From a virus (lineage: Duplodnaviria; Caudoviricetes), in the IMG/VR virus record IMGVR_UViG_3300044557_000104, positions 1-64,000 of that record: DNA of 64,000 nt. The stretch is one strand, 5' to 3'. The notes under the pieces are model-generated. The model did no database searches, was not told where the DNA came from, and saw nothing but the letters and a program-made list of their open reading frames with translations. The translations under genes and the position numbers were made by a program. Below are positions 13,910 to 40,100 of the stretch, piece by piece. The stretch's first letter is position 1. Each line of letters opens with the position of its first letter.

Positions 13910-13930
13910 TGGGAAGGGGGCATTTCAACA

Positions 13931-20877: not shown

Positions 20878-22908
20878 TTAAATGTCTAATAGCTTAATAA
20901 TATCATCCTTAGTTACCTTGCGAGCATCTAGTTGGTGAATATGTTCTGATGCTACACCATCTGGAATCTCATCTGCTGAACTAACGATATTAGCATCTAC
21001 AATTTCAAGGACTTCATTAAGAGATGGTGTATGAGTACTCTTAAAGTCTAATACATTAATAGCATTGTCTACAACATTAATATCAGGGTCTGGCATATGT
21101 CCTCTACCAAAATCATGATTAGCCAAGATAACCTTTAACTTCCCGTCTGCCTTAGGAATCACTACTGCAAAGATTTTGGCATCTCCGTCTGCTTTAGTAA
21201 AATCAGTAGTGCTAGTAATTCCCTTTCGTGATAATGTGGCTAGGATTCCACTTGGGTCATCAATTAGATGCTCTACTGATTGCTTTTGAGAAGTGTCTAT
21301 AAAGTACTTAGCATTTTCACCATTATCACCATAATCATATAGCTGGGTAATTACAGGTTTATTTAACCCCTGCTTAATTCGGTAGGCTTCCGTTGCGTAC
21401 CCATATTTATTAGTATCAGTCATGTCACCAGAGAAAGTAATTGACTCTCCCTGATCTATTCCATTCCACCCATAATGGGTTCCATCAACATCAAACAAAT
21501 GTAAATCCAGATCAGAGTGAGTTGTCCATGAGACACCTAAAACAATATCTGATTGGTAATCAAGACTTGACATATATGGGATGTTACCCACAAAAGTTTT
21601 AGCTGATGTAGGGAAAGCATAAGTCAAAAAGTCATGTTGTGGGAAAATGAAGTAGTCCCCAGAATATTTACTAAACCGTTTTCTTAACTCATTGCTAATT
21701 AGTGTATTAGCAATTTCTCCACTTGAACGGTTATAATCAATTCCTCGATACTCATTTCTCTTCATCCAAGACTTACCATTGCGAATGTTATAAATAGAAT
21801 ATTTTGGTAAATCACCATTAGATCGGTATTTAGTGATACCTTGTAATGCTGTCACTAACTTAAAGGTACTTGCATTTTTTAATGCCTTTTTAAAATTCTC
21901 ATCTTTACCATGAATTACCCTATCATAATTTTCTCGCATATAAGTTACTACGTCATTCATAATAGGTGTTTTACGAGGAAGATAAACCTTCTTAGCTTGC
22001 TTCATAGCTCGATTGATAACCGACTTATTTTTCAGGAACTTACGGATTACTAAATATATCTTTTTGTAACGCATAATATTCATAGCCATAGAGTTAGTTC
22101 CATAGATAAAAGCATAACGGTCAATATAATCTTCGATTTTATTAGCTTTACCTTCATCAACTTCTATTTGATCTAGGGCATCACGAGTTTGTTTGTTATT
22201 AACTAGTAAGGTGCTACCAGTTGCTGTGTACACTAATAAGCGAGTAAATTCATCAAAGTTTTTTGGAACGATTCTGAACTTATCAGATAAGATCAGTTTC
22301 AATTCTTTATTCTTAATATCATCATAGATTTTATAAAGATCAATTGAACATCTGTCACTTAATACCTCAGCTACATCTACAAGAGCTTCAATATCTTCTT
22401 CTGATAGTGCAATATTAGCATGAAAACTATCAATCAACATAGCTGGTAACTCATCAGCAGTGATAGGATTGATATAGGTTAATGATTCTGCGAAGTCTAA
22501 TGCAGTGTCTAAGTCTAGCGTTTGAGGTTCATAAATATCACCAGAATTACGTAATCCTTCAATGCCACCATAAGTTGAAGCATAGTGGGCACACTGAATT
22601 AAGAAACGTTCTAGTTCTGACATTTGTTCTGCTTCATCAAACGATTTAAACAGTGTTGAGTTAGCTTCAAATCCATTAATCCCATAATTAGATTTAATAT
22701 AATCAATTACACTATCTAAAACTAAGGAATTTCCAGATAAGAATCTAATGGTACTAGGATCAATAAATACACCAATCCCTAATAGTCGCTTTGAAAAACT
22801 TTCTGCAATCTCAGATGATCTTTGTGGCTTGTCTGATACCAGTACACCTTTATATAAATGTAGCAAGTCTAATTGAAACTTAATTCCTTTTTGTGCTTCT
22901 GTGATCAT
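20878..22908 (-). CDS. 676-aa protein with C-terminal TerD-like domain (Rot / Ro60-TROVE-like + TerD family candidate)
   Basis: Large helical N-terminal part; C-terminal GVSW...DLDLH...GWN...FSGDMT TerD-like motifs; family recalled, not searched. Confidence 0.6.
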   Translation of the reverse strand: MITEAQKGIKFQLDLLHLYKGVLVSDKPQRSSEIAESFSKRLLGIGVFIDPSTIRFLSGNSLVLDSVIDYIKSNYGINGFEANSTLFKSFDEAEQMSELERFLIQCAHYASTYGGIEGLRNSGDIYEPQTLDLDTALDFAESLTYINPITADELPAMLIDSFHANIALSEEDIEALVDVAEVLSDRCSIDLYKIYDDIKNKELKLILSDKFRIVPKNFDEFTRLLVYTATGSTLLVNNKQTRDALDQIEVDEGKANKIEDYIDRYAFIYGTNSMAMNIMRYKKIYLVIRKFLKNKSVINRAMKQAKKVYLPRKTPIMNDVVTYMRENYDRVIHGKDENFKKALKNASTFKLVTALQGITKYRSNGDLPKYSIYNIRNGKSWMKRNEYRGIDYNRSSGEIANTLISNELRKRFSKYSGDYFIFPQHDFLTYAFPTSAKTFVGNIPYMSSLDYQSDIVLGVSWTTHSDLDLHLFDVDGTHYGWNGIDQGESITFSGDMTDTNKYGYATEAYRIKQGLNKPVITQLYDYGDNGENAKYFIDTSQKQSVEHLIDDPSGILATLSRKGITSTTDFTKADGDAKIFAVVIPKADGKLKVILANHDFGRGHMPDPDINVVDNAINVLDFKSTHTPSLNEVLEIVDANIVSSADEIPDGVASEHIHQLDARKVTKDDIIKLLDI

Positions 22909-22938
22909 AGTTGTATACCCCCAAGTATAATAAAATTA

Positions 22939-22971
22939 AGACCCCTCAACACATAATATGCCAAGGGGTCT
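22939..22971 (-). terminator. terminator/attenuator hairpin between leader RNAs and the 676-aa gene
   Basis: AGACCCCT/AGGGGTCT stem followed by TAATTTTATT on - strand. Confidence 0.6.
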
Positions 22972-22981
22972 CCGTATGTAC

Positions 22982-23108
22982 AGAGTACGAGACGTAGTAC
23001 ATATCCATAGTAGTTTAAATGGGAACGCCTTTGTGTACTCTTTTAGGTTGACGAGATGTAATTAAATAAGTTGTTTGTAAGTTAAAATAGGAACACCCTT
23101 GTGCCAAC
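22982..23108 (-). ncRNA. two tandem ~60-nt structured RNA repeats
   Basis: Units 23108-23047 and 23041-22982 share CACAA(G/A)GG.GTTCC.ATTT.AACT ... TAC.TCTCGT with different closing stems and variable loops. Confidence 0.75.
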
Positions 23109-23120
23109 TCTATGGTTCAT

Positions 23121-23149
23121 AGTATATCATAGTATTATTCATTTGTCAA
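23121..23149 (-). promoter_or_regulatory. sigma-A promoter for tandem RNAs and the 676-aa gene
   Basis: TTGACA-17 bp-TATACT with extended TG. Confidence 0.85.
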
Positions 23150-23156
23150 GTTATTT

Positions 23157-23913: not shown

Positions 23914-24289
23914 ATTTTATGTCCTCCACATCGAATGATACACACATGTGACTATTACGGTTGATTTGTGCTTCCTCTAAGTCTAACAATCTTGATGGAT
24001 ATAATGCTAAGTCTTCAATTCTAGGATCACTAACCTTATAGGTGATGCTAGTTGTTTCAAAGTTAATGGTGATAGACTTAGCATCTTTTTGTAGCAATAG
24101 ATCATTCTCACGACAACTTTTGTAAGTTAAATATAGTCTGTCAAACTCAAATTCAATGCTATTTACTCTAGATAAGGTAAACTCTTGGTCATCTGTTTTT
24201 ACCACAATAGATGTAATACTATCATTCAAATCTTGGTCATAATCAAACATTGGTTGATTGCCCCCTTTTCCATATAAAAAGCATACCAC
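23906..24289 (-). CDS. hypothetical protein
   Basis: ORF; likely start at internal MFDY after GGGGG RBS. Confidence 0.7.
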   Translation of the reverse strand: MVCFLYGKGGNQPMFDYDQDLNDSITSIVVKTDDQEFTLSRVNSIEFEFDRLYLTYKSCRENDLLLQKDAKSITINFETTSITYKVSDPRIEDLALYPSRLLDLEEAQINRNSHMCVSFDVEDIKYE

Positions 24290-25135: not shown

Positions 25136-26557
25136 CTGCTACATAAATCTTATAAAAACCTACTAAGCATAGTTTTATTTACTTAATAGTTAGTATCTTT
25201 ATAAGTATTTATTTACCTTCGTCATTACTAGTATTCTGACTATTATCACAGAGACAATAGCCACATTGACTAGCTCTTAAGGCTTGAGGGAGTAGCCTTC
25301 CCCTTTCATTGGATTCCCTCAATTAAATTAACTGTAATAAGTTTTGTACTGCGTTTTCATCTCTATCTATGATAGCCCCACAATTGTAACAAATATACTC
25401 ATTATGTTTAGTATGGTGTTTCTTATTCCCTTGAAGGGTTATTCTATCATCACCTTGTTTAACATTACCACATTCTGAGCATCTTTGTGTGCTAGGGTAA
25501 AACTTATCTGCTAATACTAGTCTCTTTCCATACCAATTACACTTATAGGTTAAACACTGTCTAAAGTAGCCAAACTGGGATCTTTGTAGTCCTTTAGAGG
25601 CTACATGGCTCATTTGCATATGCTTAACATCTAAGTCTTCAATACCTATAGTGTCATAGTTAGATACTAGTTTTGTAGTAAACTTATGAATAATATCATG
25701 TTGTACATTAGTTACCTTAGTATAATCACGTTGAAGTTTGGTTCTCACTTCTTGATAATTTATACTTCCATGTTTCTTTCTTGACAACATTTTTTGATAA
25801 TGCTTGATTCTATCATAGAGCTTAGCTAAACGTTTCGGTAGAACATTACAACTACCTTCTGTGTAATTCAAGTGTCCAACATTCACATCTACTGCTGTAC
25901 TCTGATTGGTCTTAGGTTTGCTAGGAATATCCTCTACTTTATAGGGAATAGAGGCATAATATTTACTATTGACTCTATAGATAGAGATGGTACCATAATC
26001 ATAATTTAGGAGGTTACCCCTTACTTTAATATCATACCAAATAGACTTATTATCTCTAGGCTTATCCAGCCTAAGTTTGCCTTTAATAAACTTAATTCTA
26101 TCTGATTTAAACCCCTGTCTAGGAGCTTTCTTAGACTTAAATTTGGGCTTGCCCCAATCAGGTAATGACTTATCAAAGAAATGCTTCCAAGCATTACCTA
26201 AGTCAGAAATTCCCTGCTGTAGCACTCTAGCAGACAGAGCATACTGCCAATCTTGCTTGTTAGCTACTAAGTAGTCTCTAACTTTATATTCACTAGGGCT
26301 AGGATTATTATCTTTATCTAGTAAGTGCAAATTATACATCTCATTCCATGCTTCTAAGCCTAGATTCCAACAATACCTTCGATAGTCACAAAGCCTATCT
26401 AATTCCTTAGTCATATGGCTATTAGGGTATAACCTAACTGTTATTGTTTTTACATACACTATTCTCACCTTCTTTCCAGATAATAACAGTGTAGCATACT
26501 TAATAGATATTATCAAGTTTGTAGACTATTTTATAAATAATTAGTTACAGTTCACAG
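25136..26557 (-). mobile_element. non-autonomous IS607-like (tnpB-only) element
   Basis: No end hairpins; LE GCTGTGAACTGTAACTAA and RE ...TTTATAAGATTTATGTAGCAG resemble IS607 ends; AG dinucleotide at both junctions; no serine recombinase gene. Confidence 0.65.
25323..26516 (-). CDS. tnpB: RNA-guided endonuclease TnpB (IS607-type)
   Basis: VRLYP HTH, RYCWN, PKFKSKK; RuvC D (AVDVN), E (IEDL), D (DRDENA); zinc finger; likely GTG start near 26459. Confidence 0.93.
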   Translation of the reverse strand: MIISIKYATLLLSGKKVRIVYVKTITVRLYPNSHMTKELDRLCDYRRYCWNLGLEAWNEMYNLHLLDKDNNPSPSEYKVRDYLVANKQDWQYALSARVLQQGISDLGNAWKHFFDKSLPDWGKPKFKSKKAPRQGFKSDRIKFIKGKLRLDKPRDNKSIWYDIKVRGNLLNYDYGTISIYRVNSKYYASIPYKVEDIPSKPKTNQSTAVDVNVGHLNYTEGSCNVLPKRLAKLYDRIKHYQKMLSRKKHGSINYQEVRTKLQRDYTKVTNVQHDIIHKFTTKLVSNYDTIGIEDLDVKHMQMSHVASKGLQRSQFGYFRQCLTYKCNWYGKRLVLADKFYPSTQRCSECGNVKQGDDRITLQGNKKHHTKHNEYICYNCGAIIDRDENAVQNLLQLI

Positions 26558-32054: not shown

Positions 32055-33060
32055 AGTAAGAAATTACAAAGCTACGGGGAAGCCTGAGATTGGTATAAAC
32101 TGTAGTGACAATTGAATAGTACTATGGTAATGGGGAGAGACAAGTTCGCATTCATCATAGAGCGTTATCCCAGAGCGGTTAAAAACGTGAGGGTGGAAAG
32201 AAAATGTGGGAAACAAGCTGGTTTATAACTTGTTGCGGTATAGAGTAGTATACGTTGAGCCGATTCTATAAAATCAACGGGAGGGCTATCTAAGTAGGAG
32301 AGTAGGAGGATAGTCTGTGAGTGGCTGGCAGCTCATTAAATACTTGCCGTTGATGGCGTCTGGTGTCTTGAAAGAGATGGGCGCTATAATATTAGAATCA
32401 AGTCTTATCAGAATACGAGAGCGGGTTCTACGGGTGTGGCTAGACAACACCCAGTTTAGTTCAAAGCAACTATTGTATTATAGCGAGGGACGATCTAAGG
32501 TATTATCTATCTGAGGTTCTGGGTCAGATAATATTATGATCTAGCTGGCATCTACTCTCCTAAAAAAATGAAACGCGTATTGGGGCTTTTCTGGTTCTTA
32601 TGTTTTATTTGAGTTGCTTTTCCCATAGTTGCTCTGTTAGTTTACCTTGTCTATTTGACATGTTTTCAGAGTATACTATGGGGACAACTCTATTTTCTCA
32701 CAACGTTTAAAACTTTCTGGTTAAGTTCATAACATACATAATACTTCTAATTAACATTTCCAAATAAATACAATTTGATATAACTTCTAACAAAAATAAA
32801 AATTGATTACTACATCACCGGTTCTCAGGTGATAACGTCCAGAGGTTCGTCCTCTGGTTGGAAGGTATTTGCGGGCTTTGCAAATTCCTTTCAAAGTAAA
32901 GAACTTTAAAATATATAAATAAACTGAATAGATAACACAACTGAAAAAGAGAAAGTACATAAAGAGAAAAGATTAAAAGAGAAGAGACAAGTTCAAGAGA
33001 AGTATGTCAACGTCCCGTTGCCACCGTGGATTGCCCCACGGAGGGCATTAAGTGATAAAT
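32055..33060 (+). ncRNA. candidate large structured non-coding RNA region
   Basis: No credible ORF; TG-TACAAT -10 at 32040-32048; 11-bp long-range pair 32295-32305/32552-32562; many nested hairpins. Confidence 0.55.
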
Positions 33061-33385
33061 AACTTAATAGAGTTACTCTTTATTATTTTCTTTAAGTTGA
33101 AACAAAGTTAGGTTTAGTACAGGTAAAATACTTTTATTAGTAATTTAAGTAATTAATTTTAAATACAATAAATCATAACAATTTTTGTGGTCAATTTTAA
33201 AATAGTAGAGTTAGTAATACATAACAATAAATGTGGTCAATAATGAATTAAAGAATAAATATACATAAAATGAATAGATAATTAGTACAACTAGTTGTTG
33301 AAAAATACTGATAAATATGGTATAATATAGTAGTAAACTAGAACAGATTAGTCGTAGTATATGCAGACAGGAGGGTATAAATATT

Positions 33386-34183: not shown

Positions 34184-34257
34184 AACAGATATGCCAAAAT
34201 CTTTCTATATTATAACTAGTAAGATAATTTATAATTCAGAAAGGTTCTCGATAAGGA

Positions 34258-36084: not shown

Positions 36085-36115
36085 TGAATTGCTGATTTGA
36101 AAGAAGGTAAGAATA

Positions 36116-36535
36116 GTGAGTAACCGTTTAATTGATGGAATTAAAAATGAGATTGATGATACTAAAGATGAAACTACCATTACTAATGTTAAAAAGACTA
36201 TTGAGTTATTATCAGGTCGGTTACTGCAACAGGCATCAGAGGGTACCATTGATTTAGATATTAAAGATTTAAAAGACCTAACGTCAGTTCTAGCTATGTT
36301 GAAAGATTCTGGTGAAGATAATGGCCAAATGGGTACTCCACCTGTAAGTGGTAGGATGACTGTTTACTTTAACTCAGCTTTAAATGGTCAGAAAGATAAC
36401 CCAGAACAATCTGATGATGAAACCGATATTAGTCAAGGCTTGGAAGATATGTCTGAGGAAGATGTCAACAAAATGCTGAATGCTCAGTTTGAAGAACAAA
36501 ACAAAGAAAACTTTGACAAAAATAATGAAGCGTGA
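36116..36535 (+). CDS. putative terminase small subunit
   Basis: Position before terL; acidic helical protein of typical size. Confidence 0.6.
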   Translation: MSNRLIDGIKNEIDDTKDETTITNVKKTIELLSGRLLQQASEGTIDLDIKDLKDLTSVLAMLKDSGEDNGQMGTPPVSGRMTVYFNSALNGQKDNPEQSDDETDISQGLEDMSEEDVNKMLNAQFEEQNKENFDKNNEA

Positions 36536-36745
36536 TATACTATAATCAAGTTGATAGATAAACCTTTTACATTATAATATCGTGCTAATTAAGTCATAAT
36601 CTTATCTATTAACCTAGTAGTAATACTTGTTGGAGCAGGTGTTACTATGAATTGTGGCAGGTATTCAATCGTTAAGATACTTGGCATTTTTGAAAACTCC
36701 TTTTTATTGATTGCAGAGAAGAGACTGTGTGAGGTCTCTTTTTTG
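36513..36745 (+). ncRNA. sRNA unit 1 (promoter + hairpins + anti-RBS segment + terminator)
   Basis: TTGACA-17-TATACT; CAT-TTTTGAAAA-CTCCTT at 36685-36702; AGAGAC/GTCTCT terminator plus T tract. Confidence 0.7.
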
Positions 36746-36762
36746 TTTGCCTGAATAAATAG

Positions 36763-36909
36763 TTGACAAAACATTTAATTCATGCTATTATAGTACTTGT
36801 AGATGAGTAATATCATCTACACTTGCTGATTTTCATGATGTTTGTTTTCAACCTATTTATATTTTTCCTCTACTTTGCCTTCCCCTTGTGTGCAATGTAG
36901 AGGTTTTTT
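36763..36909 (+). ncRNA. sRNA unit 2
   Basis: TTGACA-17-TATTAT; 5' hairpin TGTAGATGA/TCATCTACA; pyrimidine-rich tract with CAT; CCTCTAC/GTAGAGG terminator plus T6. Confidence 0.7.
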
Positions 36910-36918
36910 GTGCTATAA

Positions 36919-37091
36919 TTGACATTTTAAACAGATCATGATATTATATGTACATGGTAGGATGTTAATACATCTCATAGGGGTAAACCGCATACTACCT
37001 ATGAACTACCATTACAACTCATGGTTGTATACCTCCTTTTCCATAATATAGTTTACACTGCGGTTGGTATCCCACTTGGGGTACCTTTTTT
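36919..37091 (+). ncRNA. sRNA unit 3
   Basis: TTGACA-17-TATTAT; branched 5' hairpin; CAT-GGTTGTAT-ACCTCCTT at 37020-37038; GGTATCCC/GGGGTACC terminator plus T tract. Confidence 0.75.
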
Positions 37092-37153
37092 AATACTGTG
37101 GTGTTGCTATATTATAAATTACAAACAAATAAGTAACAGAAAGGATTGATAAA

Positions 37154-40100
37154 TTGAATGGTAAACAACTAGATTCTATGATTAGAGATACCTTTAATCT
37201 GGGGTCTAACGATCCAATTACACCAAAGCAATTGAACTATGTAATGGGACTAATGGTACCTTCTAACTACTTGTTGCAGAACCATACTATTGATGGTAAG
37301 CCAGTGACTTACAACATTCCTAACCGTAATGAGAATATGGCACGAGGACATCGACCTTGGCAGGTAGATATAATTAACGATATGAGTAAAAATTTGGTTG
37401 TTATCAAAGGTCGCCAAATGGGTTTAAGTGAAGTTGGTATAAGTCAAATGATATGGTTCGCAGATACACACTCCTATGACCACGTGAATTGTCTATATGC
37501 TTTTCCTAAGTAAGATGTGGGACTTTTAGGAGCAATCCTAATTGAAAAACTCTGTTAAACGGGCATAGCCAAGATAACTACTATATAAACAATAGGCTGG
37601 TAAGAAAGACTAAATCCCAATAGTAGGGGACAGAGTTAATCACCGTAGTAAATCAGTATTGTATTCGATACTGTAAATCTCTAGAGACTAAATTTCTAGG
37701 TAGCTACTAAAATGGTAGTAGTAAGAACTAGATAAGAAAAATTTTAACAGAGGTAATCAATATGCCTAAATTTAAGACACAAGATGAATTTATAAATGAT
37801 GTTTATGCTAAATATGGTGATCAGTTTTCTGTTATTGGAAAATACGTTAGAAGTACTACTCGTGTAAGAATTAAGTGTAATGTATGTGGATATACATTTG
37901 ATGCTATGCCAAATACTTTGCTCACTAGAGGACGAGGTTACAAATGTAAGAAGTGTCTGATGAGTAATCCTAATTATGCTAATGAAGTATATAAGGAGTA
38001 TAATGGTAAATTTTCTGTTTTAAGTAGTTACAAGGGTTGTGATACACCTGTTTTATATAGATGTAATGTTCATAATAAGGAGTTTAAAATGAAACCAACT
38101 TCCTTTAGAAGATCAAATTTTAAATGTCCTGTATGTAAATATAACCACGCTACTGAAAAGCAGAGAAAAACAGACACCCAATTTAAGTCAGAGTTGAATA
38201 AAGCACATCATGGTAGAATAATTGCGCTTGATAAATATGTTAACACACATACTAAAATAAAATTCAAGTGTACTGTATGTGGAAGTGTATTTTGTACTGA
38301 GCCAAATGCTGTTTTGAGAATTAGCGGATGCCCAAAGTGTTCTTATAGTACTGGTGAAACTATTATAAAAGACTTGTTTGATGATGAAGGTATTGATTAT
38401 GAGTCACCAAAGAAGTTTCCAGATTGTGTATATAAAAGGCAATTGCATTTTGACTTTTACCTAGAAAAGTATAACCTTCTTATTGAATTTGATGGGGAAC
38501 AGCATAATAAAGCTGTTGACTTCTTTGGTGGGGAGGAATACTTAAAAGATTATAAAATACGAGATAGTATTAAAAATGAATATGCTATTAAAAATAATAT
38601 TAATTTAATGCGTATACCATATATTAGAGATAAAAATGAAGTTTGCAAAATAATAATGAACTTTATTAAATATAAATCATCAGATTACCTTGTTAATAAA
38701 TAAGTAAAGCAGAGACTCTTATACCAAAAGTTAAGAGTAAGAGATAGTCCACTCCCTAAATAAATATTGGGAAACCAAGGGTATAAAGAACATATAAGCA
38801 AATGAACACATTCTACAAGCAACGTCTAAAGCCTGAGTTTACATCAGGTGGGTATTATAGTAGTTTGGTAGATGAAAAGCATGGAATGTCTATGGATCAA
38901 ATGAACATTAGAGATTCGTCAGTAACATTCCGTACATCAAGTAAGGGAGCAAGTCTTGAAGGACTCAAGGTTGACCTTGCTTCGTTGGATTTATAATAAG
39001 TCCAGTATTGTAGTAATATAATAATATAAACACTGTTAAACGGGCATAGCCAATATAACTACTATATAAACAATAGGCTGGTAAGAAAGACTAAATCCTA
39101 GTAGTAGAGGGCAGAGTTAATCACCGTACTAAATTAGTAGAAATACTATACAGGTCTAACGACTATCGAACAGGGAGTTAATTAAATGGAATTAACAAGA
39201 CTTAGTAGAGTAAAACTCATAGTAATATGAGAGGAAAAGCAGTGAGTCCTACACCAAAAGGTAGGATTAAGAGATAGTCTAAACCCTAAATAAATATTGG
39301 GAAACCAAGGGTACTAATTGGAATATGACAGATTGAGTCCTTTAGCTGAGCAATCAGCTATTCAATCAATGGCATCATCTAAGTATCAATTACTAAGAAG
39401 ATGGTCAACGCCTACAACAAGCCACTATGGTATCCACAAATTGTTTGAACAATCAGATCAACGATTCTGGACTCATAAATGCCCACATTGTGGATATTGT
39501 CAAGTAATGGATTATGATAAAAATATTAAACTTCTTAATAAAGATGGTATTGATGTCATTGGTAAAAAAGTATACCCTGGAACCTTTCAATATGTTTGTC
39601 AGAAATGTGGTAAGCCACTAGACAGATGGTATGACGGATTTTGGGATATTACATCACCCGGTGATGGTGGTCGTGCTCATGGGTACTCACTATCACAAAT
39701 GGACTGTGTGTGGATCAGTGCTTCAAAACTTAAAGAATCTGAAATGAATGCACCAAGTAAATCATACTTCTACAACTATAGTTTAGGTCGCCCATATCAA
39801 GATGATAGTTTATCCTTTAAGAGTGCAGATGTTTATTCTCACATTGCAGACTATGATCGTCCATTTGATAGAAGCAACTACACCCTAGTATCCGCTGGAA
39901 TTGATTGGGGTTAAATCTTAGCTCCACTATAGAGTAATCTATAGGAAAATAAAACACTGTTAAACGGGCATAGCCAATATAACTACTATATAAACAATAG
40001 GCTGGTAAGAAAGACTAAATCCTAGTAGTAGAGGACAGAGTTAATCACCGTAGTAAATCAGTAGTATAATAAATACTGTAAATCTCTAGAGACTATCGAA

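Follow-up and report, generated by a model that had tools for sequence, protein, structure and literature searches.

The region between the TerS-like gene (36116-36535) and terL exon 1 (37154-37513) of this phage raises the question of what a small RNA encoded there may do, and in particular whether it acts as an antisense switch on a gene located 14 kb away, as an earlier note on this DNA had proposed. The window, that is the whole stretch of DNA that was analysed, covers the first 64 kb of a 118,436-bp IMG/VR virus record. The DNA is distantly related to the Herelleviridae phages of Lactobacillus plantarum, and the phage appears, on the basis of its sequence, to be a lytic, Herelleviridae-like phage of the Lactobacillus type. 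Three TG-extended consensus promoters (36513, 36763 and 36919) and three terminators are found between the two genes, and the third unit, sRNA3, contains an 18-nt seed (37019-37036, + strand) that can pair with the start region of a gene encoding a 676-aa protein. The most fitting view of this duplex is that it is one of the consequences of sRNA3 containing a recurrent start cassette in mirror image. The reading preferred here, to which we would give a probability of roughly 45%, is that the full segment of ~35 nt in the middle of sRNA3 (37016-37053, + strand) is an anti-start-region element with some role in the masking of start regions, in cis on terL and/or in trans.

The promoter of sRNA3, P3 (36919-36947, + strand), is a TG-extended consensus promoter of the sigma-A type, in which TTGACA and TATTAT are separated by 17 nt, with 11/12 matches, and is conserved in the relatives. 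From this promoter and the terminator that follows we infer a terminated transcript of ~140 nt (36953-37092, + strand; fold z = -2.9), which is predicted to consist of a structured 5' domain of nested hairpins (36954-37012, + strand), an open middle and an intrinsic terminator (37066-37092, + strand) with an 8-bp stem and a U6 tail. The terminator lies 60 nt before terL, and sRNA3 would also constitute the 5' leader of terL once it is read through. With regard to the seed, fold prediction places its 5' half in a weak hairpin (32% unpaired) and leaves its 3' half, UACCUCC, exposed (88% unpaired). The loop of the second 5' hairpin, AACCGC (36986-36991), is the exact complement of the GCGGTT found immediately before the terminator stem (37060-37065), and pairing between them could form a pseudoknot competing with the 20-bp read-through helix described below.

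In eight independent metagenome contigs sRNA3 is 98.6-100% identical to the window, whereas terS, terL, unit 1 and unit 2 are only 88-95% identical in the same contigs, and sRNA3 is the most conserved stretch of the locus. Since this identity lies far above that of the flanks, the whole length of the RNA appears to be constrained, and not the seed alone. The seed is invariant in all the relatives, the structured 5' domain differs by one base in L014 and is otherwise invariant, and three relatives (L011-13) carry a G-U to A-U change in the terminator that keeps the stem. In the same three contigs, which represent one lineage, units 1 and 2 are cleanly deleted (window 36536-36912), the deletion joint lying between promoters 1 and 3, and unit 3 is kept. 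Two other relatives (L009, L010) have an extra element inserted within unit 1.

Searches for a known RNA family gave little. The sRNA array matches no Rfam family at the gathering score, C4 included, with only chance-level matches when E up to 5 is allowed; for the leader of the 676-aa gene there is no credible Rfam match either, no tRNA or tmRNA was found, and exact-pattern scans of IMG/VR and JGI for the 5' domain of sRNA3 returned no match. Several coding readings of the array were also rejected: the 42-aa ORF at 37021 on the + strand is devoid of an SD, the ATG of the + strand reading of unit 1 is ACG in the relatives, the 32-aa ORF on the minus strand of unit 1 is frameshifted in four relatives, and the minus-strand ORF that follows the mirror-image start in sRNA3 has 7 codons only. 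The 12-14-nt complements to 37001-37016 that occur across the genome were likewise discarded as a signal, as they reflect a common coding word, AATGGTAGT.

The earlier note had described 18 contiguous pairs between the seed and the start of the 676-aa gene, covering its SD-to-AUG region, and the sequence at both sites bears this out. The seed reads TCATGGTTGTATACCTCC and the proposed trans target, which comprises the SD, spacer and AUG of the gene (22922-22905, minus strand, variant T0), reads GGGGGTATACAACTATGA, with an ATG at 22908-22906 that opens the ORF 20878-22908. Sixteen of the pairs are Watson-Crick and two are G-U (target G3 with an sRNA U, and target U14 with an sRNA G). The duplex is the longest contiguous one that sRNA3 can form in the genome, and a degenerate search of the whole window retrieved these two sites only. 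Its rarity was scored as the best contiguous helix of sRNA3 against each of 398 start codons in the 118-kb genome, each preceded by an SD-like tract and opening a frame of 40 codons or more. The score of the 676 start, 41, was reached by 0.2% of 1000 and by 0.7% of 300 dinucleotide shuffles, and the third-best partner is also an outlier (P = 0.003-0.004 against shuffles). Among real 140-nt windows of the genome (n = 3380), 1.1% reach 41 with a non-overlapping start region, mostly via dispersed repeats, and if the antisense is counted as a start region too, a partner agreeing at 16/18 positions in register exists for 1.5% of the start regions. The match thus exceeds the chance expectation at about the 1% level, without correction for the free search by which it was first noticed, and is unusual, not astronomically rare. 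Cofolding of sRNA3 with the 676 start region gives a net energy of -23.8 kcal/mol, and the duplex is real, thermodynamically credible and non-random.

A further claim, that no other start region in the window matches as well, holds for the window, where the next partner, the start at 24250, has 14 contiguous pairs, and does not extend to the genome, as the start at 117157 has 17 contiguous pairs and a lower duplex energy. When the open middle of sRNA3 alone was ranked against all 398 start regions, the top three duplexes were those with 117157 (-32.5 kcal/mol), 24250 (-29.7) and 22908, the 676 start (-29.6), followed by a fourth-best duplex at -25.9, against a mean of -14.2 and a standard deviation of 4.1. 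Cofolding with longer mRNA pieces gave net energies of -25.7 for 117157 and -21.4 for 24250, close to the value for the 676 gene, and of -3 to -10 kcal/mol for three control genes. The start at 117157, which lies beyond the window, belongs to a 207-aa nucleotidyltransferase-like protein with a weak match to the head of poly(A) polymerases and CCA enzymes (E = 0.005). The third predicted partner is the start cassette (24251-24274, minus strand) of a 114-aa ORF, which adds more pairs to its 14 contiguous ones; this cassette is absent in L017-19, and in L005 its first part alone survives. The 676-aa gene thus shares its rank with two other candidates and is not a private target. ACCUCCUUU in the anti-start-region segment equals the 3' tail of the Firmicute 16S rRNA, so the SD-complementary part is generic and specificity can come from the spacer and the CAU only. 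Since sRNA3 can pair about equally with two other genes and, inside its own transcript, with the terL start, a dedicated switch on the 676-aa gene is no more than a possibility. sRNA1 likewise looks like an anti-SD/anti-AUG RNA; comparison of sRNA1, sRNA2 and the 676 leader with the start regions of the phage gave no match above chance.

The relatives also permit a comparison of seed and target. The 676 start region exists in three variants: T0 in the window and in five further contigs, T1 (GGAGGTATGCAAACATGA) in L005 from sample ERZ24991167, and T2 (GGAGGTATATAATTATGA) in L017 from sample SRR28489346. L005 shares its sample with L008, whose seed is unchanged, so that T1 gives 17/18 pairs with one G.A mismatch; T2, paired with the invariant seed known from other samples, would give 18/18 pairs, three of them G-U. 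The duplex energies are -29.6, -26.4 and -27.1 kcal/mol for T0, T1 and T2, respectively. The variants have changed at 3-4 of the 18 target positions, which is faster than the surroundings, and in L005 the stretch from the terminator to the ATG of the 676-aa gene differs at 8/34 positions, with the leader upstream diverging more slowly. In a drift test that used random substitutions and held the SD core and the ATG fixed, pairing was kept equally well in 12% and 19% of the trials (P = 0.12 and 0.19); most of the target changes are transitions opposite an sRNA G or U, so pairing is kept automatically. The co-variation that a switch on this gene might be expected to leave is thus not found, as the seed is invariant in eight contigs, the target drifts with no compensatory change, and the retention of pairing is not significant. 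The pattern that the earlier note named as counting against its proposal, relatives that keep the seed while the target diverges, is present by half: the target does diverge, and pairing is largely kept. Scans of IMG/VR for close relatives with TerS and with the 676-aa protein found none. In the phage contigs of two distant relatives of the 676-aa gene there is no complement of their start region, and the one complement with 2 mismatches in the distant relatives was rejected, as a host transporter gene contains it; the query used for terL found no match there, so the phage is probably incomplete in these contigs.

The 676-aa gene (20878-22908, minus strand) had been called Rot-like, a term used for ROT/TROVE proteins (PMC7824862), and this call fares unevenly. 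The protein matches no Pfam or PHROG family and no PDB entry by sequence profile, and Pfam TROVE gives no match in it or in 25 homologues, even at loose E-values. Its AlphaFold model (pLDDT 81), searched as the whole 676-residue model, aligns residues 450-616 with 2qz7 (Z 9.2, rmsd 2.8, 133 residues aligned) and with 2kxt (Z 8.6), and Foldseek recovers the TerD-fold domain at E = 7e-4, so that the modelled structure has a TerD beta-sandwich fold at residues ~450-616. The helical-repeat N-terminal part gives only generic HEAT-like matches in the whole-model search (Z 5-6). The Rot-like call is thus unconfirmed for its TROVE part, and the claim that sRNA3 links two RNA modules of the phage, which depends on the Rot/Ro60-like assignment, finds its TerD-fold part alone confirmed.

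The same gene has a leader (22938-23149, minus strand) with a consensus promoter (23149-23121), an RNA of ~190 nt and a terminator (22972-22938). Repeated motifs of the GTTCCTATTT type occur in it (22972-23118, minus strand), followed by the terminator. The layout of leader, terminator and start is kept before homologues that are only 32-34% identical (L085, 1270-1400; L086, 1320-1420), and the leader RNA thus seems to belong to the gene. These distant homologues come from a Lactobacillus MAG and from a contig of Limosilactobacillus agrestimuris. In two relatives (L015, 60-300; L016, 1-150; compared with 22940-23150) the leader is replaced up to the SD by another sequence, which has its own internal repeat (GTTCCTAGAAGCTCGGTAC...), and the start region and coding sequence are identical.

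What the partners of sRNA3 share becomes apparent when the segment is read on the other strand. The reverse complement of 37016-37053 consists of CTATATTAT, GGAAAAGGAGG, TATACAAC and CATG, which correspond to a late-promoter-like box, an extended SD, a spacer and a start, with the spacer of this mirror-image cassette placing the SD about 8-9 nt before the ATG. It aligns with the start cassette at 110213-110246 with 30/35 identical positions (E = 5e-4), and further related start cassettes are found at 13911, 22942, 24274 and 117130. The box CTATATTAT has 13 copies in the 118-kb genome, 10 of them on the + strand, and these are mostly intergenic, lie ahead of the + strand genes of the structural region and often precede AAATAG. 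Within the window it occurs at 34205, 37107, 40664, 43877, 46013 and 50194 on the + strand and at 33330, 37051 and 54028 on the minus strand, with more copies beyond the window. Judged by its sequence and position, CTATATTAT looks like the core of the late promoter of the phage. The inverted copy in sRNA3 (37043-37051, minus strand), which also forms the 5' arm of helix 6 of the predicted fold, is an exact 9-nt match that, by our own estimate from base composition and the number of copies found, would be expected ~0.003 times per window.

The seed has, in addition, a partner in cis. The terL start region (37139-37173, + strand) comprises an SD at 37139-37145, a TTG start at 37154 and codons 3-7 at 37160-37173. 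The read-through RNA (36953-37200) is predicted to fold to -75.6 kcal/mol (z = -5.9), and in both the minimum-energy and the centroid folds positions 37019-37040, which comprise the seed and the four bases after it, form 20 bp with the terL SD and codons 3-7, and the start codon remains in an internal loop. A second predicted helix of 20 bp (37043-37064 with 37095-37115) encloses the terminator, and its 3' arm (37095-37115, + strand) holds the + strand CTATATTAT box upstream of terL (37107-37115). In the relatives 99.2% of the pair cells remain paired, with seven one-sided pair-preserving changes, no two-sided ones and little variation overall; three pairs are broken in one or two relatives, and in the seed-terL duplex one pair is broken in L010-L013. 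No two-sided change occurs anywhere because sRNA3 hardly varies. The arms of the second helix differ at positions that give G-U in the + sense RNA and A.C on the other strand, which points to selection on the + strand RNA. As a bimolecular duplex the pairing of seed and terL is average (rank 69/398). A transcript from the late-type box would be devoid of the seed and would leave the terL start free, so a simple cis logic is plausible; against it, a strong promoter maintained solely for a silent leader seems wasteful. Overall, the folding model makes cis masking of terL by the segment a tentative proposal with odds a little short of even.

Any action of sRNA3 in trans on phage mRNAs is a possibility that we place somewhat lower, and it is doubtful that the 676-aa gene is a true trans target. 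The promoter and terminator of sRNA3, its conservation, the exposed anti-SD half of the seed, the cofold and the duplexes with T1 and T2 all speak for the antisense switch as it had been proposed; specificity, co-variation and the cis partner of the seed in terL speak against it. Its strictest form, in which sRNA3 would be a dedicated trans-encoded switch on the 676 SD and AUG that couples the sRNA array to the leader-RNA/676 module, strikes us as improbable. The length of the contiguous duplex, which sRNA3 exceeds nowhere in the genome, its P of ~0.002-0.007 against shuffles, the accessible anti-SD toehold and the pairing retained by T1 and T2 are in line with such a switch, but two further start regions match or surpass its pairing, and four target changes are uncompensated by the invariant seed, including the G.A mismatch within one sample (L005/L008). 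Pairing retention is, moreover, not significant, the distant relatives with the leader-gene module show no anti-start sequence in their contigs, and the Ro60/TROVE identity of the 676-aa protein is unconfirmed. At the other extreme, an AT-rich genome with starts rich in SD and ATG, confronted with a CU-rich sRNA, might yield one long match by chance. With G-U allowed, helices of 18 bp are not very rare, being equalled by 1.1% of windows and 1.5% of start regions, and the earlier reader searched freely; nonetheless, chance seems very improbable, since the second and third partners are outliers too, and the similarity extends to several cassettes (E = 5e-4) and includes an exact inverted 9-nt box.

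Between these two stands an explanation by cassette homology, in which an inverted cassette was spread by recombination, or arose as the complement of the terL promoter and start for the leader hairpin, and the 676 match reflects shared ancestry with no use in trans. It accounts for a similarity to other cassettes that reaches past what start-region pairing needs, for a cassette located at gene-cassette boundaries that differ among relatives, for the ~1% of real windows that reach the score via dispersed repeats, and for target start regions that are not conserved. We nevertheless consider it unlikely: a duplex of -30 kcal/mol with an exposed toehold would probably form, selected or not, if the two RNAs coexist, and the strong promoter and invariant 5' domain argue that the terminated RNA is itself functional. 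It would take a good deal more to favour a leftward late unit, in which the minus-strand CTATATTAT box (37051-37043) fires late and produces an RNA that is antisense to both sRNA3 and P3 and would work either as an anti-sRNA or through promoter interference. Such an RNA would start at an SD-like sequence, and the likeness to the 676 start would be that between two ordinary cassettes. A perfect 9/9 box, an ideal SD, a 9-nt spacer and an ATG fit this arrangement, but the ORF that follows has only 7 codons, the minus strand offers neither a terminator nor a longer ORF, the box is accounted for in full by its complementarity to the other arm of helix 6, and the differences between the arms are G-U in the + sense RNA only, which together leave it scarcely credible.

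Under the preferred reading, that of an anti-start-region element, sRNA3 would be made from a consensus host-type promoter and would terminate before terL, with read-through producing the terL leader. The segment is the mirror image of the standard start cassette of the phage (box, extended SD, spacer and AUG), and since it mirrors this cassette it could cover ribosome-binding sites in two ways, in cis and in trans. In cis, the read-through RNA may close a long hairpin that buries the terL SD and first codons, a masking that would not affect transcripts begun at the CTATATTAT box, which lies downstream of the seed. In trans, the exposed ACCUCC may serve the free sRNA as a toehold for pairing with the few start regions that share the cassette, namely those of the nucleotidyltransferase-like gene (117157), the 676-aa gene and the ORF at 24250. 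The sequences, their conservation and the predicted energies are what the analysis establishes, while the ends of the transcript, the timing of these events and any repression are what we infer. A fuller version, rather unlikely when taken as a whole, is that of a dual-use RNA: the free 140-nt sRNA would silence a shared-cassette regulon (the TerD-domain 676-aa protein, the nucleotidyltransferase resembling CCA-adding enzymes and poly(A) polymerases, and the small ORF), and as a leader it would keep the terminase untranslated until the late promoter fires. If sRNA3 does mask ribosome-binding sites, it would offer a concrete and easily tested example of a lytic phage of Gram-positive bacteria that times its own translation by means of RNA, and an early sRNA would be tied to the onset of packaging-gene expression. 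The finding is a well-defined candidate and not evidence of a new mechanism.

Anti-SD sRNAs with C/U-rich exposed motifs are familiar from Firmicutes, such as RNAIII and the Rsa RNAs of S. aureus, or RoxS and SR1 of B. subtilis. sRNA3 resembles them in its structured 5' domain, its unpaired C/U-rich anti-SD motif, its intrinsic terminator and its predicted pairing from SD to AUG; they are, however, host-encoded and multi-target RNAs with short seeds, whereas in sRNA3 an entire cassette is mirrored over an exceptional length (18-33 nt). A second comparison is with leader hairpins that hide the SD of the gene behind them until processing or an alternative start frees it, as in the lambda N leader, which has an RNase III site. 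The predicted read-through fold similarly buries the terL SD at the base of a long hairpin, and transcripts from the downstream late-type box would be devoid of the occluding arm; unlike in those leaders, the occluding arm of sRNA3 is predicted to be released as a separate, abundant terminated RNA as well.

Among phage RNAs, the c4 antisense RNA of phages P1 and P7 has the ribosome-binding region of the ant mRNA as its target (PMC12197685). Like c4, sRNA3 is a phage sRNA with exposed segments complementary to the ribosome-binding region of an mRNA of the same phage, and is predicted to block translation in trans. c4 is, however, processed from the operon of its target in the immunity region of a temperate phage, whereas sRNA3 is served by a host-type promoter and a terminator of its own, the distance to the proposed target is 14 kb, the phage is lytic and Herelleviridae-like, and several candidate targets rank equally. 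The sar RNA of P22, which blocks antirepressor translation, and the OOP RNA of lambda are cis-encoded antisense RNAs (PMC12197685). As predicted for sRNA3, these short RNAs of phages pair with a phage mRNA, but they are transcribed from the strand opposite to their target and are perfectly complementary by construction, while the target of sRNA3 would lie at another locus. Small RNAs have also been seen in the transcriptomes of Herelleviridae phages, with functions that are unknown (PMC10383478).

With regard to expression, four public runs were compared, all as contigs that carry no information on ends, strand or level, and one RNA run among the public data (X5) covers nearly the whole phage. 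In a metatranscriptome run (X23), of which contigs only are available, small pieces fall on unit 1 and on the 676 leader and none on sRNA3. The few X23 pieces that match the phage fall on non-coding stretches, at 32144-32294 and 32428-32578 (the intergenic region near 32 kb), 36583-36772 (unit 1) and 23012-23060 (676 leader); as contigs they provide a hint of expression that falls short of evidence, and the runs weigh on neither side of the question.

Several observations concern the mobility of elements around this locus. An ORF for an HNH/treble-clef homing endonuclease (37762-38703) separates terL exon 1 from the rest of terL, and in the relatives the gene calls for terL exon 1 range from 88 to 187 aa, with differences in the intron region as well. 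A match to the Rfam Transposase-1 RNA (25222-25282, minus strand) adjoins a TnpB-like ORF (25323-26516), and copies of TnpB (OrfB_IS605) are located elsewhere in the relatives, at 4111-5259 in L008, between lysin and terS, and at 9226-10374 in L011; their different placement among close relatives indicates that these elements move between closely related phages. Lastly, the start regions of the TerS-like gene (36102-36119, + strand) and of the TnpB-like ORF (26456-26473, minus strand) are identical at 16/18 positions in register, forming one of only three pairs at this level among the 398 start regions.
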